A stretch of 17,905 nucleotides of DNA from Candidatus Hydrogenedentota bacterium (GCA_045863295.1 BTWA01000019.1:90188-108092); one strand, 5' to 3'; counted from the stretch's first letter, positions 1 through 8,971 are shown. A program made the numbers and translations. The notes: generated from the sequence alone by a model not told the origin.

Positions 1-1598
1 GCAAAGGTCTTCTGGCCGCCCGACAACACGTCTTCGGGCTTTTGAATCCGGTCCTCGGAGACCTCGCTCACATGGATGAGGCCTTCCACGCCGTTATCAA
101 GGCGCGCGAACGCGCCAAAGCTGACCAGCTTTGCAATCTCGACTTCCAGGATGGATCCAATCGGGTGGCCGTCCACGACTTCCTGCCACGGATCCTTGTC
201 CAACTGTTTCAAGCCGACGCCGATCTTTTCGTTCTCCGGGTCGATGCTCAACACCTTGACCTCGACGACCTGATCCTTCTCCAGCACTTCGGAGGGGTGG
301 GCCACCTTCTTGGTCCAGGATACGTCCGACACATGCAGCAACGCATCGATGCCTTCTTCCAGCTCGATGAACGCACCGTAGTCCGTCAGGTTCCGCACGC
401 GGCCGGACACAATTGAATTGACTGGATACTTCGATTCGATTTCGCGCCACGGATTGGGACGGGTCTGCTTCAGGCCCAGCGCAATCTTTTCCGCGTCCGG
501 ATCGACGTTCAGCACCATCACGTCCACTTCGGCGTCAATCGCGAGGACTTCATTGGGATGGCGCACGCGCCGGGTCCAGCTCATCTCGCTGACGTGCACC
601 ATGCCTTCGATGCCGTCTTCAAGCTGCACAAACGCGCCGTAGTCGGTCATGCTGACCACGCGGCCGCGGACCACGTTACCGATCGGATACCGGTCGAGCG
701 CCGTCTTCCACGGGTTTTGCGACTTCTGCTTCAGCCCGAGGCTGATCCGCTCGGTGTGTGGGTCGAAGCTCAACACCATTACTTCGATGCGCTGGCCCAC
801 GCTCACAACTTGCGAAGGATGCTTCACGCGGCCCCACGACATGTCGGTCACGTGAAGGAGGCCGTCGATGCCACCCACGTCGACAAACGCGCCGAAATCC
901 GTAATATTCTTCACCTCGCCTGGAATCACCTGACCCACGGCAATGGTGCTCAACAACTTGTTCTTTTCGTCCGCGCGCTGTTCTTCCAACAGCTTTCTGC
1001 GGCTCACCACCACGTTGCGCCGGCGTTTGGTCAGCTTGATGATCTTCAGTTCCATCTCCTGACCGATGTACCGCTCCAAGTCGCTGGTGGGGCGCCAGGT
1101 CAATTGGCTGGCCGGCATGAACGCATCAATGCCGATATCCACCTTCAAACCGCCCTTCACACGCCGCACGATACGGCCGCGAATGACGCCGTCCTGTTCG
1201 TAAATTTCCTGGATGTGCGTCCAGTTCTTGATTTTGTCTGCTTTGATTTTCGAGAGCACCGGCATGCCGTCTTCGTCTTCCGGTTCCTCGATGAACACGT
1301 CAAATACCTGGCCGATCACAATTTCATTGCGATGCTGGAATTCCTCGATCGGAATCGCGCCCTCGCTCTTGTAACCGATGTCGACGAGCACGTAGTCTTC
1401 CGCAAGATCAACGACGGTGCCTTTAACGACTTCGCCCTCTTTGAAGCTGTGCATGCTTTCATCGTAGAACGCAGTCATTTCTTCCTCGGTCAGGGGAGCC
1501 CCTTCGCCGGTGAAGTCCGCCACGGCGCTAGCCGTTCTGCCCGCGGTGTTTGCCTCCAATTCGGAGACGCCTGTTGTTACCTGTTTTTCATCAACCAT
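1..1598 (-). CDS. rpsA: 30S ribosomal protein S1 (5' part; 3' end lies beyond the left edge of the window)
   Basis: Absent from the ORF track because there is no stop in the window. Manual translation from ATG 1598 gives MVDEKQVTTG...FKEGEVVKGTVVDLAEDYVLVDIGYKSEGAIPIEEF, and near the window start VEGLIHVSEVSEDRIQKPEDVL in the same frame; these are S1-domain repeats. AAAGGAGG at 1620-1613. Confidence 0.97.
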   Translation of the reverse strand, partial: MVDEKQVTTGVSELEANTAGRTASAVADFTGEGAPLTEEEMTAFYDESMHSFKEGEVVKGTVVDLAEDYVLVDIGYKSEGAIPIEEFQHRNEIVIGQVFDVFIEEPEDEDGMPVLSKIKADKIKNWTHIQEIYEQDGVIRGRIVRRVKGGLKVDIGIDAFMPASQLTWRPTSDLERYIGQEMELKIIKLTKRRRNVVVSRRKLLEEQRADEKNKLLSTIAVGQVIPGEVKNITDFGAFVDVGGIDGLLHVTDMSWGRVKHPSQVVSVGQRIEVMVLSFDPHTERISLGLKQKSQNPWKTALDRYPIGNVVRGRVVSMTDYGAFVQLEDGIEGMVHVSEMSWTRRVRHPNEVLAIDAEVDVMVLNVDPDAEKIALGLKQTRPNPWREIESKYPVNSIVSGRVRNLTDYGAFIELEEGIDALLHVSDVSWTKKVAHPSEVLEKDQVVEVKVLSIDPENEKIGVGLKQLDKDPWQEVVDGHPIGSILEVEIAKLVSFGAFARLDNGVEGLIHVSEVSEDRIQKPEDVLSGGQKTF

Positions 1599-1737: not shown

Positions 1738-1766
1738 TTGATCGCGCGCGCGAATTTTCATATACT
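1738..1766 (+). promoter_or_regulatory. Putative sigma70-type promoter of the tRNA-His-hisS unit
   Basis: TTGATC (1738-1743), 17 nt spacer, TATACT (1761-1766), about 65 nt upstream of the tRNA. Confidence 0.65.
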
Positions 1767-1833
1767 CTTATCCCGATTGTGGTTGCCGATGGATGTGCAT
1801 AGCCGCACGTACCACGGGAACGGCAATGCGTGT

Positions 1834-1910
1834 GCCGGGATAGCTCAGCTGGTTAGAGCGCTGGATTGTGGATCCAGAGGTCGAGGGTTCGAACCCCCCT
1901 CCCGGTACCA
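1834..1910 (+). tRNA. tRNA-His (GUG), CCA encoded; atypical: no G-1, G1:U72, A73
   Basis: Cloverleaf: acceptor GCCGGGA/TCCCGGT, D-stem GCTC/GAGC, anticodon stem CTGGA/TCCAG with loop TTGTGGA (GTG at 1868-1870), T-arm GAGGG-TTCGAAC-CCCCC, discriminator A, then CCA. Confidence 0.97.
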
Positions 1911-2008
1911 TTTCAATTCCCTCCGCAAAGCCCCGTGGGGGCCGGTTGCATTCTGGTACAGACAGGCGAGCCGTGTCACCTGCGCGCGCACCGCGATTTC
2001 GATTAACC

Positions 2009-2029
2009 CGGCGGCCGGGCCGCCGTTTC
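2009..2029 (+). terminator. GC-rich hairpin with a short T-tail between tRNA-His and hisS (possible leaky terminator or processing signal)
   Basis: CGGCGGC-CGG-GCCGCCG (2009-2025) followed by TTTC. Confidence 0.3.
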
Positions 2030-2041
2030 ACAAGGTGGATC

Positions 2042-3481
2042 ATGACCGACCCAAAGCAACTCGTCGAACCACGCACGCTCAAGGGATTCCAGGATTTGTT
2101 GCCGGAGGATATCCTGCCGCGCACCGCCGTGATTCGATCCATTGAAAGCGTATTCGAACGCTACGGATTTCAGCCGCTCGATTCGCCCGCCATCGAACAC
2201 CTCGATGTATTGTTGGGCGCCGGTGGCGAAGAAACCAACAAGGAATTGTTTCGCCTGCAAACGCCCGAGGGCGAGCCCGTCGCCTTGCGATTCGATCTGA
2301 CCGTTCCGTTTGCCCGCCTCATGGCCCAGTATCCCGAACGTCTCAAACCGCCGTTCCGGCGATACGCCATTGGATCTGTCTTTCGCGCCGACAAACCCGG
2401 TCCCGGGCGCTTCCGCCAGTTCACGCAATTCGATATCGATGCCGCCGGTTCGGATGCCGTCGTCGTGGATGCGGAGATCATTTCGATCATGTGCGAAGTG
2501 ATGTCCGTTCTGAATGCTTCTGACTATTGCGTGTGCATCAACAACCGGAAGATTATCGACGCGCTGCTCCTGGGCAACGGCATCGACAATCCCGATCGTC
2601 AGAAACACGTGCTCCGTGTCATCGATAAACTCGCCAAAGTGGGCGTCGAAAACATCCGCCTCGAACTCGGTCCCGGACGTATCGACGCCTCCGGCGATCC
2701 GATTCCCGGTGTCAAGCTGGACGATGCGACTATCAATGCGCTGTTGTCATTCATTGCGATAGAAGCAAGCACCCGCCACGGCATCGTCGCTGCCATGGAA
2801 ACCGCCTTGCCCCCGTCGGAGGCGTCGCAGGCGGCGGTACAGGACATGCGCGATTTGGCGGATGCCCTCGAAGCGCTTGGCGTGGCCGAGCAACATGCGC
2901 GCTTTCAACCCAGCCTCGCGCGCGGTCTCGACTATTACACGGGCACCGTGTTCGAGATGATTCTCCCCACTGCCCCCGAATTTGGATCCGTGATGGGTGG
3001 CGGCCGGTACGATGGACTGGTTTCCCGCTTCCTCGACCGGCCCGTCGCGTGCACCGGCATGTCCGTGGGCTTAGACCGGCTCATGGCCGCACTCACGTAC
3101 CTGGGACTGGTCACGACTCCAAAGACCACCGTGCAGGCGCTCATTGTATCGTTGCCCGGCGTGCCGCCCGCGGAAACGCTCCGTATCGCCGCGGAATTGC
3201 GCCGCGCGGGTATCAACACCGAGCCTTATTTCGGCAGCAAGCGCGGCATGAAGCATCAGATGGCGCATGCCGATCATTACGGCATCCCGGTGGCGGTAAT
3301 CGTCGGTGGCGACGAACTGGCGCAGGGTGTGGTGTCGGTCAAGGACCTATTCGCTGGTAAGGCGGAACGTGAAAACATTGCCGATCGCGACGCCTATCGC
3401 GAAGCCGGCCGCACCGGACAAATCACCGTGAAGCGCGAGGATATGGTGGAGACGGTGCAACGGTTTCTCGGCGTCCACTGA
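2042..3481 (+). CDS. hisS: Histidine--tRNA ligase (alphaproteobacterial-like subtype)
   Basis: PRTLKGFQD at the N-terminus, ALRFDLTVPFAR, motif 2 FRADKPGPGRFRQFTQFDID, HisA RGLDYYTG, HisB GGGRYDGL, motif 3 GMSVGLDRL, C-terminal anticodon-binding domain. Start set to ATG 2042 (AAGGTGG upstream), since the track start at 1868 lies inside the tRNA. Confidence 0.97.
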   Translation: MTDPKQLVEPRTLKGFQDLLPEDILPRTAVIRSIESVFERYGFQPLDSPAIEHLDVLLGAGGEETNKELFRLQTPEGEPVALRFDLTVPFARLMAQYPERLKPPFRRYAIGSVFRADKPGPGRFRQFTQFDIDAAGSDAVVVDAEIISIMCEVMSVLNASDYCVCINNRKIIDALLLGNGIDNPDRQKHVLRVIDKLAKVGVENIRLELGPGRIDASGDPIPGVKLDDATINALLSFIAIEASTRHGIVAAMETALPPSEASQAAVQDMRDLADALEALGVAEQHARFQPSLARGLDYYTGTVFEMILPTAPEFGSVMGGGRYDGLVSRFLDRPVACTGMSVGLDRLMAALTYLGLVTTPKTTVQALIVSLPGVPPAETLRIAAELRRAGINTEPYFGSKRGMKHQMAHADHYGIPVAVIVGGDELAQGVVSVKDLFAGKAERENIADRDAYREAGRTGQITVKREDMVETVQRFLGVH

Positions 3482-6364: not shown

Positions 6365-7318
6365 TCAGTACGCGCGGCCGAACGCGGCCACCAACGGCGT
6401 GACCGGAATGTCCGAATTCACCGAACTTGGATAACGGCGCCACGCAACGTGACCGTCCATGAACAACACGTTCGCACCGCCCGGCACGTGAGCAAATTCT
6501 TCCGTGTCCGTGTCGATCGAACCCTTGACCACGTCCCACATCACCGGAATGTTGGACTGGGCCTTGGAGCCGCCCGCCGCGGCGTTGATGTTCGTGATCA
6601 TGAAACGCTCAATGCCATCTTTCAGACGGTACACCGTGTTGCTGCCGCCATTGCCCTTCGCGACCACCGTGGCATACTGCGGGAACTTGGAGCCCACGAT
6701 GCCGTTGATGTACGTGGCGAACAAGCTGGACGTATTCGCCAACGAGGCGTTCATGTTTGAATCGCGCAGGTTAAATGCAGTAACCCGGTTGCCGCCCGCG
6801 CCCGCTTCGTTCACGATCGACGCAAGGACCATCGTGCCCCACACGATGTCATCTTCCGTGACCCAGCCGTAATACACATAGCCGCGGTCATCGAACTTCT
6901 CGGGATCCAGACCCGGGGTATTCGGATTGCTCGCGCCCGTGGCGCACCAATCGCCACCCGGGCACAGCGTGAAGTCGTCTTGATCATCCAAATCCGACGG
7001 ACAGAAATAGGTGTTCATGTCCGTCATGTATTCGGGATAAATGGACGGGCCGTGCGGCACGGCGACGAGTCCCGTATTCCAGGTCGCATCGTCCAGGCTG
7101 CCTTCGTCGCCCAGCGGCGGGAAAAGACCGCCCGCGGACTCGTTCGCGTACATTTTGTACGAGAGGCCCCATTGTTTCAGGTTATTCTGGCAGGACGCGC
7201 GCCGTGCCGCTTCGCGAGCCCTTGCGAGCGCCGGCAGCAGAATGGCCGCCAGAATGCCGATGATGGCGATAACCACCAGCAATTCGATCAGTGTGAACCC
7301 CTTATTACGCTTACTCAT
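6365..7318 (-). CDS. Prepilin-type N-terminal cleavage/methylation, DUF1559 and H-X9-DG domain protein (paralog 1)
   Basis: MSKRNKG^[42 protein letters not shown], central FCPSD, C-terminal [25 protein letters not shown] before ATG 7318. Confidence 0.92.
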
Positions 7319-7418
7319 GGTTGCTCTCCCTCGATAGATGCGTATTTTGAATAAAGGCAAGGAACTGGTAGGGGGTGGGTATGAATCATTCCGTTGCGCC
7401 GACCCTCCCAAGGGTTAG

Positions 7419-7889: not shown

Positions 7890-8819
7890 CTAGTTGAACA
7901 ATTCACCCACCGAGATGGCCATCAAGCGGGAGATAGGGGCCTTGCCCGGGTAGCGGATGAAGGACACGTGGCCGTCCATGTACAGCACGTTGCAACCGCC
8001 GGGGACGTGATTGAAGTTTTTCACTTCCGTCGACAGCGCGTCGTACATGATGTCGATTTCGCTTTGGGCCTTGTTGCCGGAAGCGGACGCATTGATGTTC
8101 GTGATCAGGAAGCGCTCAATGCCTTCCTTCAAACGGTTCACCTTGTTGCTGTTGGCGTTACCGATGGCATTCCACGGGGACTGAAGCGTCAGATCGCCGT
8201 CAATGACGTTGAACATGTTTACATTGTTACCGGAGGTCACGTGAGGCACCGCTGTCGTCAGCAGACGATCCACGGCTGCCAGATACTGGGCCGAACCGGC
8301 ATTCGCGGGGTTGTCGATGCCCGAGCCAAGCACGAGCATAATGCCAGGGAACGTGGAGATCACCGCGGACGGATCGGAGTCGCCGGTGCGGTCGATCAAC
8401 CAGCCCATGTAGCTATAGCTGGCGTCGGCGTCATCACGACGTCCGGGCGTGTACACGTCGATGTTTCCGGTCGCGCTGTTCGTCAGGTCCTGCTCGTCGT
8501 TGTTCGGATCGGACGGGCACAGGAACGTGGCCTGATCCGTCATGTATTCCGGATAGACGGAAAGGACGCGCGGAGCGGCGGCCAAATCCACCGTGCCGGG
8601 GCCATAGGTGTCGATCTGCATGGGCGGGAACTTCTGGCCGAAGGATTCGCCGGCATACATCTTGAACGCCAAACCCCATTGCTTGAGGTTGTTCTGGCAG
8701 CTGGCACGACGCGCCGCTTCACGGGCACGCGCCAACGCGGGCAGCAAAATCGCCGCAAGAATACCGATGATGGCGATCACCACCAGCAGTTCGATAAGCG
8801 TAAAGCCTCTCTTCTTCAT
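7890..8819 (-). CDS. Prepilin-type N-terminal cleavage/methylation, DUF1559 and H-X9-DG domain protein (paralog 2)
   Basis: MKKRG^[73 protein letters not shown] before ATG 8819. The 754-aa track ORF is an upstream over-extension. Confidence 0.92.
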
Positions 8820-8971
8820 GATTGAGTTCCTTTTCGCGGTAGACTTACCGCATATATAATAACGTTGATGCTTGGTTGAAGCAGCCGACACAAGGCGGCT
8901 TCGCAGAGTGGGTGTAGATGTTGCGCCGTTGCACCTCCCCGTCCACATGGGCTCCTTCCCGCAAGGAGCCA

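Follow-up and report, generated by a model that had tools for sequence, protein, structure and literature searches.

A histidyl-tRNA synthetase and G-1-less tRNA-His pair that appears fixed in an order of Hydrogenedentota, with signs of transfer between bacterial lineages

An extra guanosine at the 5' end (G-1) marks tRNA-His in most of life. In this study, we describe a tRNA-His gene that encodes no G-1 and lies directly upstream of hisS, the gene for histidyl-tRNA synthetase (HisRS), in 17,905 nt of DNA from a Candidatus Hydrogenedentota bacterium (GCA_045863295.1, BTWA01000019.1:90188-108092; 'the window' is this whole stretch, and its coordinates count from its first base). Judged from sequence, the two genes form, by every sequence criterion tested, a G-1-less system of the RRCH type with an enzyme on a separate branch, and the trait appears to be order-wide in Hydrogenedentales and long resident in this host. 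We consider it very probable that the pair is the sole histidine-charging system of its organism and works without G-1. We give about even chances to a wider history, in which one old bacterial HisRS lineage has spread as a swappable tRNA-His–hisS(–hisG) unit, was fixed in Hydrogenedentales as a possible reservoir for copies under the titles of at least eight other phyla, was replaced by a canonical pair in one genus, and gave rise to the alphaproteobacterial version through a planctomycete- or Lernaella-related bacterium, so that the latter would be no alphaproteobacterial one-off of eukaryotic origin. The mechanism itself would be of a known kind; what seems new is its fixation in an order of Hydrogenedentota and its swaps between lineages as a pair.

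Results

The tRNA-His gene and its synthetase

The only tRNA that ARAGORN calls in the window lies at 1834-1910 on the plus strand and is a tRNA-His(GTG). The preceding base (1833) is T where the canonical base is G, the acceptor strands GCCGGGA and TCCCGGT give G1:U72 and C3:G70, A73 is the discriminator and precedes an encoded CCA, and the sequence further reads as having C at position 3 and a 9-nt D-loop with U20a. The ATG of hisS lies at 2042, 131 nt past the CCA, and a TGA ends the open reading frame (ORF) at 3481. The original prediction, made from the sequence alone, had named U-1, G1:U72, A73 and the 131-nt distance, all of which we confirm; the promoter that it proposed for both genes is a candidate, to which one sigma-70-like site and the absence of called terminator-like sites on the plus strand between the genes weakly point, so that co-transcription is a prediction from a consensus match.

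Features of the pair are as follows.

1738..1766, plus strand: candidate sigma-70-like promoter upstream of the tRNA, TTGATC-17-TATACT (9/12 matches; consensus match only)
1833..1833, plus strand: position -1 of tRNA-His, T for canonical G (sequence reading)
1834..1910, plus strand: tRNA-His(GUG) with G1:U72, C3:G70, 9-nt D-loop with U20a, A73 and CCA (ARAGORN and sequence reading)
1911..2041, plus strand: 131-nt spacer between tRNA and hisS (folding z 0.29, no better than shuffles)
2042..3481, plus strand: hisS, 479-residue HisRS of the G-1-less type (profile match)
2267..2269, plus strand: Glu76, at the site of the Gly-Gly G-1-pocket loop of Thermus thermophilus HisRS (correspondence by alignment; pocket from the excerpted text of PMC4357726)
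2384..2422, plus strand: motif-2 loop RADKPGPGRFRQF, with Gly120 replacing the canonical Gln (alignment)
2669..2710, plus strand: insertion-domain insert G-R-x-D-x-S-G-D, residues about 210-223, predicted beta-hairpin (alignment and model)
3350..3418, plus strand: insert of about 20 residues (about 437-459) in the anticodon-binding domain, predicted helix-loop-helix (alignment and model)

The assembly (6.3 Mb, 96.25% complete) holds 43 tRNA genes, of which one is tRNA-His, and a single match to the HisRS/HisZ family, the hisS of the window; the PF04446 profile of Thg1 has no match in this genome, and across the phylum Thg1 turns up in one genome out of 135. A second tRNA-His in this genome is unlikely, and the searches that had been proposed for another tRNA-His, a second HisRS or Thg1 returned none in the 96.25%-complete assembly.

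Residues and inserts that set the enzyme apart

The 479-residue protein scores 353.8 bits against TIGR00442 hisS (cut-off 286.75) and falls under every HisZ cut-off. We compared 44 HisRS of the G-1-less type with 26 of the G-1 type, the tRNA types being mostly read directly, with those of five alphaproteobacteria taken from papers and a few assumed from order membership. Both inserts and Arg329 are present in 44/44 of the former and 0/26 of the latter, as are Asp215, Gly218 and Gly223 within the insertion-domain insert, and Arg245 likewise separates the two types. In an AlphaFold model of the window enzyme (predicted local distance difference test score 93), the first insert forms a beta-hairpin and the second a helix-loop-helix.

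Position 76 is Glu or Asp in all 44 G-1-less-type enzymes; among the 26 others, Gly occurs in 19 and Asp in three. According to the excerpted text of PMC4357726, a Gly-Gly pocket holds G-1 and is blocked by two Asp in Caulobacter, whereas the window enzyme has one acidic residue there. The motif-2 loop reads RADKPGPGRFRQF in the window enzyme, RNEKPGPGRFRQF in Sinorhizobium and RHERPQKGRYRQF in Klebsiella, and motif-2 Arg125 is kept in 44/44 enzymes of the G-1-less type. Identity to the Klebsiella enzyme is about 26%, and the nearest solved structures by sequence are the Nostoc and human HisRS, not that of Escherichia coli. The description of the enzyme as alphaproteobacterial in type thus stands for its motif-2 Gly, acidic pocket and both inserts; it occupies its own branch of that enzyme family, at 36-39% identity.

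Two unusual proteins were seen alongside. P0170 is a HisRS with an aminoacyl-tRNA editing domain at its N terminus, and P0122 (796 residues) is a HisRS close to that of the window with about 310 unannotated N-terminal residues, for which a fusion to HisG found no Pfam support.

An order-wide trait with one apparent reversal

The nearest HisRS loci (among the best 80 of 534 matches) are mostly titled Hydrogenedentota, with up to 74% identity, and further ones are titled uncultured Nitrospiraceae or Nitrospirales, or only bacterium. For rpsA, five of the six organism-named matches are Hydrogenedentota and one is Nitrospiraceae (among 120 matches listed). Both agree with the earlier view that the host lies outside Alphaproteobacteria, and place it in Hydrogenedentota. 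A recent import into this genome was considered and set aside, as the enzyme groups with Hydrogenedentota rows and the GC content of hisS (0.60) is close to that of the contig (0.58).

HisRS was found in 130 of the 135 genomes of the phylum, in 126 of them at 51% identity or more to the window enzyme. The four exceptions (G001, G002, G096 and G098), each with a single HisRS match, combine motif-2 Gln with a canonical tRNA-His (G-1, G1:C72, C73). Whereas G001 and G002 lie outside the order, G096 and G098 belong to genus g13, in the same family as the genome of the window; their HisRS groups with an Embleya enzyme, and their canonical tRNA-His lies about 200 nt behind hisS (G096:C200:12751-14213 and G098:C174:7038-8521; loci L155 and L156), whereas the rest of genus g13 uses the G-1-less enzyme type. 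The two genomes thus show an apparent swap back to a canonical pair.

For the tRNA, 60 of 120 tRNA-His matches were fetched across families by similarity to the window tRNA, a query biased to this type, and 58 were analysed after one cut by a contig end and one tRNA-Met were dropped. The 1:72 pair is G:U in 56 of them and G:C in two; position 73 is A in 57, G in one and C in none; and position -1 is T in 37, G in 16 and C in five. Since 57 of the 58 have A73 and none has C73, the signature of the window tRNA is no sequencing accident.

Enzyme and tRNA also co-vary beyond the phylum. Of 151 genomes in the phylum to which G135 (titled Phycisphaerales) belongs, G135 alone has an enzyme above 50% identity, and 59 others reach 35-44%. 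For the best 29 of these, a planctomycete sample, tRNA-His was recovered in 27, with G-1/C73 in 22 and U72/A73 in five, and these five are exactly the genomes whose HisRS carries both inserts. A pattern for the A73-type tRNA-His matched 5 of 111 genomes, namely G135 and four of those five; in a survey of Dehalococcoidia, the tRNA-His pattern itself matched only 5 of 51 genomes.

Some acceptor ends were odd: G1:U72 with G73 in L141 (G111) and U72 with C73 in G410. Six genomes of the planctomycete sample (G259, G244, G192, G228, G273 and G211; L280-L284 and L288) have G-1:C73 with C1:G72, and in four of these HisRS has a C-terminal extension of about 100 residues.

A probable single origin of the G-1-less enzyme

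With all alignment columns, the clade of the window joins the alphaproteobacteria and the rows of planctomycete type in a single clade (support 98, FastTree, 272 rows), which recurs in a quick tree of 80 rows with a Shimodaira–Hasegawa-like approximate likelihood ratio support of 98. When the two inserts and the motif-2 loop were removed, a quick tree split this clade, but a tree constrained to its monophyly was better than that free tree by 40.75 log-likelihood units, and the approximately unbiased (AU) test did not reject monophyly (p 0.90, and p 0.28 on a careful 41-row tree). As the insert-free 41-row tree leaves the deep branches without support for joining the two halves, a single origin, which we regard as likely, rests mainly on the shared inserts. 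The additional, independent loss of G-1 raised in the original prediction probably did not take place, given two conserved inserts common to the alphaproteobacterial type.

In the 41-row insert-free tree, the alphaproteobacterial rows nest (100/98) among clusters of Uabimicrobium, Phycisphaerales and Lernaella and genomes of the planctomycete sample. A clade of alphaproteobacteria and eukaryotes is rejected on this tree (p 4e-5); a first AU test had given p 0.058, but the free tree it was compared with later proved suboptimal. An exclusive clade of alphaproteobacteria and the Hydrogenedentales type is rejected as well (p 5e-6), which, with the 36-39% identity, led us to discard direct acquisition from Alphaproteobacteria. 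The trees used LG+G4 without a mixture, the groups were named after the first tree had been seen, eukaryotes contributed four or five rows, of which those with names are all from animals, and among the eight 'alpha' rows are four proteins assigned by tree position. The excerpted text of PMC3937112 calls the alphaproteobacterial enzyme eukaryote-derived; that of PMC5370408 reports that a later study did not support transfer from eukaryotes, which agrees with our rejection of the joint clade.

Linked copies titled as other phyla

Of the 118 Hydrogenedentales genomes in which both genes were located, 19 have tRNA-His no more than 700 nt upstream of hisS, a count from which contig breaks may conceal a few. 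By contrast, 19 loci among the best 80 of 534 matches carry titles of other phyla, and 14 of these have tRNA-His as the immediate upstream neighbour of hisS. The adjacency that the original prediction proposed to look for is thus not conserved within the order but common in these copies. By title, the 14 loci belong to Verrucomicrobiota (five), Sumerlaeota (two), and Omnitrophota, Abditibacteriota, Planctomycetota, Nitrospirota, Acidobacteriota, Chloroflexota and Actinomycetota (one each); A73 is found in all 14, U72 in 13 and G at -1 in two. When ten such genomes were searched whole, each gave a single HisRS match, and the G-1-less type was the only tRNA-His in nine, with none found in the tenth. 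Around other-phylum hosts, the type is sporadic, at 1/85 (101 genomes searched), 3/52 (61 searched) and 1/44 (51 searched), where counts were made by eye, denominators are genomes with a match, each count includes the centre genome, and one spurious match was dropped from the 3/52 set.

Because the type is sporadic outside the phylum, yet linked in 14 of 19 loci, its distribution fits transfer of tRNA-His and hisS as a pair. Three enzymes of family f1 fall inside the other-phylum HisRS clade (98/98), and AU tests reject monophyly for genus g13 (p 6e-6) and family f1 (p 9e-6). As monophyly of all Hydrogenedentales enzymes is not rejected (p 0.17), Hydrogenedentales may be seen only as a possible donor. 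The gene hisG adjoins the pair in ten loci (L045, L049, L058, L061, L077, L083, L084, L159, L160 and L163), in the order hisG-tRNA-hisS in at least four (L061, L077, L083 and L163); in G142 it adjoins a second tRNA copy, and in the genome of the window it lies on a different contig. Among 47 neighbouring ORFs from 25 loci, only hisG recurs, so that no conserved flanking genes of an autonomous mobile element were seen, and phage and plasmid collections yielded no match exceeding 40% identity. The earlier idea of a unit that can be transferred together thus seems to apply to other lineages, whereas the host of the window has a long-resident, order-wide pair whose two genes are neighbours in just 19 of 118 genomes. 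Our own reading is that incoming pairs are linked as both parts are needed, and that linkage decays after fixation.

Two kinds of irregular locus were noted. In L045 (2432-2617), a tandem pair of identical tRNA-His copies, with T and A at -1, precedes hisS; in L058 and L024 a frameshift, possibly an assembly error, splits hisS, which in the L058 genome is the sole HisRS match.

A proposed mechanism and its alternatives

The biochemistry proposed here is extrapolated from Caulobacter, whereas gene content, sequence features, co-variation and distribution are our own observations. With no G-1:C73 pair in the precursor, RNase P would cleave at its usual +1 site and leave a mature tRNA-His that begins at G1. 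In HisRS, an acidic residue would fill the G-1 pocket. The enzyme would recognise its tRNA by the GUG anticodon, with the anticodon-domain insert assisting, by the G1:U72 wobble and, to a small extent, by A73, in line with Caulobacter crescentus, for which PMC3064791 reports a 91-fold loss with U72C, 91-1000-fold losses with anticodon changes, and losses of 3-fold with A73C and 5-fold with an added G-1. The G-R-x-D-x-S-G-D hairpin of the insertion domain may clamp the shortened acceptor stem. Either partner would work poorly with a canonical counterpart, orthogonality again being carried over from Caulobacter, and a swap would succeed only if both genes arrive together, which is why the pair is proposed to move as a tRNA-His–hisS unit, often with hisG. 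In Hydrogenedentales, it would have been fixed long ago, its genes having since mostly drifted apart. One tRNA of the host, tRNA-Glu(CUC) (G000:C4:41342-41416), likewise has U-1, G1:U72 and A73, so the acceptor end alone cannot specify histidine in this cell.

Several observations weigh against this mechanism or against the history proposed with it. G is encoded at -1 in 16 of the 58 relatives, and U-1 of the window tRNA could in principle pair with A73. The tRNA set of the assembly is incomplete (no Ile-GAU, no Ala-UGC). The window enzyme is only 36-39% identical to the alphaproteobacterial type and does not have the longer loop that this type carries near residues 58-70, for which reason recognition details may differ from those in Caulobacter. 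Two features could not be kept as diagnostic: motif-2 Gly occurs in 35/44 enzymes of the G-1-less type, yet also in 6/26 of the G-1 type, and G171 combines it with a G-1/C73 tRNA; and the canonical tRNA-His of G096 shares the 9-nt D-loop. Host names outside the phylum are record titles of metagenome-assembled genomes, and no integrase or transposase was found among the 47 neighbouring ORFs of the 25 loci, at 1-2 ORFs per locus.

A nucleotide at -1 might nevertheless be kept, if RNase P cut at -1, U-1 paired with A73 or any N-1 stayed in place, and HisRS read the extra 5' phosphate. U-1:A73 would be a Watson–Crick pair, T is the commonest base at -1 (37/58), the 5'-phosphate-binding arginine of motif 2 is retained, and the Aeropyrum pernix HisRS takes A-1 and C-1 (excerpted text of PMC9976931). 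Yet the pair is impossible in 21 of the 58 relatives, and U-1 is just as frequent among the other A73 tRNAs of this genome (13/23; Fisher p 0.62), which argues against a required U-1:A73 pair; with an acidic pocket residue in 44/44 enzymes and a related Caulobacter enzyme that G-1 slows (PMC3064791), we find such retention quite improbable. A post-transcriptional addition of G-1, as in eukaryotes, by Thg1 or another guanylyltransferase to serve a HisRS that needs it seems to us scarcely credible: A73 is the eukaryotic pattern and human HisRS is among the nearest solved relatives, but Thg1 is absent from this genome and nearly so from the phylum, the enzyme groups with the G-1-less type apart from eukaryotes, and G1:U72 is an alphaproteobacterial element.

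Two further alternatives concern history. Hydrogenedentales may have lost G-1 independently under the same identity rules, with the adjacency in the window incidental. On trees without inserts and motif-2 loop, no supported branch unites the Hydrogenedentales-type clade (100/100) with the alphaproteobacterial–planctomycete clade (96/85), a row that bears the inserts groups with one from outside (96/81), a quick tree split the two halves, and adjacency is seen in just 19 of 118 genomes; against this, the two halves share inserts with the same conserved residues and the same tRNA signature, form one clade with all columns, and are not rejected as monophyletic without the inserts, so that we rate convergence as unlikely. 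The copies in other phyla might also be binning errors, Hydrogenedentota contigs in other bins, with no mobile pair at all. Their hosts are all metagenome-assembled, and titles or bins can err, as several Nitrospiraceae-titled records and a short Rhodothermaeota contig (L043, 70% identical) bear Hydrogenedentota-like enzymes; but contigs of 0.8-5.0 Mb carry several of the pairs (L058, L081 and L083), in genomes with no second HisRS or tRNA-His, and the other-phylum enzymes fall into a clade of their own (98/98) that excludes most Hydrogenedentales enzymes, which leaves this explanation very unlikely.

Comparison with known systems

In PMC3064791, the bacterial G-1-less trait is confined to Alphaproteobacteria, and likewise in the excerpted texts of PMC4357726, PMC3937112, PMC3245924, PMC3561963, PMC4338351, PMC9976931, PMC7590224, PMC5370408 and PMC11551756. 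Among the matches listed in a search of open full text, we found no report of the trait outside Alphaproteobacteria, including in Hydrogenedentota, planctomycetes and verrucomicrobia.

The closest known counterpart is the RRCH (RCS) group of Alphaproteobacteria (C. crescentus and Sinorhizobium meliloti; PMC3064791 and excerpted text of PMC3937112), whose tRNA-His is alike in its absence of an encoded G-1, its G1:U72, A73, C3:G70 and 9-nt D-loop, and whose HisRS shares the motif-2 Gly, the acidic pocket and both the anticodon-domain and G-R-x-D-x-S-G-D inserts, with no need for Thg1. The window pair differs in its Hydrogenedentota host, in an enzyme of a separate clade without the loop near residues 58-70, and in a patchy distribution across phyla with swaps both ways. 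Whereas its tRNA-His lies directly upstream of hisS, 5/5 alphaproteobacterial loci have no tRNA within 1.5 kb, and two annotated ones have the order hisS-hisZ-hisG. With the canonical E. coli and T. thermophilus system (excerpted text of PMC4357726), the pair shares the class IIa fold, the catalytic motifs and the GUG anticodon, but not G-1, C73 or the motif-2 Gln, and its pocket Gly is replaced by Glu. The G-1-independent HisRS of Acanthamoeba and Trypanosoma (excerpted texts of PMC3561963 and PMC4338351) also use tRNA-His with A73 and without G-1, but these systems lack G1:U72 and the motif-2 Gly, and eukaryotic HisRS fall outside the clade of the window in our trees, in which Acanthamoeba and Trypanosoma sequences are not among the rows. 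A synthetase together with its tRNA identity rule outside the home group also recalls the archaeal-type tyrosyl- and tryptophanyl-tRNA synthetases of candidate phyla radiation bacteria (excerpted text of PMC5370408), which differ in that they concern other amino acids, whereas the closest relatives of the window pair are bacterial.

A second large lineage apparently fixed for the trait, sporadic linked copies and a swap back in one genus would weaken the argument that the trait is a marker. They would also exemplify, in nature, a change of tRNA identity rule through transfer of both partners, and congeneric genomes with opposite rules (G094, G095 and G097 versus G096 and G098) would make the identity switch directly testable.

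Other features of the window and genome

One further feature lies beside the pair.

1..1598, minus strand: rpsA, partial, divergent neighbour (sequence match); a taxonomic marker only, outside the system

The rpsA and GNAT genes of the window lie beside no other hisS locus that we fetched. The tRNA leader (1767-1840) folds as a long hairpin (z -2.85) and shares one 8-mer with the anticodon arm; a conserved leader structure was rejected, as z falls below -2 in just 9 of 58 relatives and the TTGTGG word of the window occurs in 0 of 58. The neighbouring DUF1559 paralogs of the original prediction were recovered as two prepilin-type N-methyl/DUF1559 genes on the minus strand (6365-7411 and about 7890-8850), the first confirmed by Pfam. 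Elsewhere in the genome, a tRNA-Leu has the anticodon AAG (G000:C3:230131-230217), and Leu-GAG is not among the 43 tRNAs; outside Arg, A34 tRNAs are seldom found in bacteria, and this one would point to a broadened adenosine deaminase.

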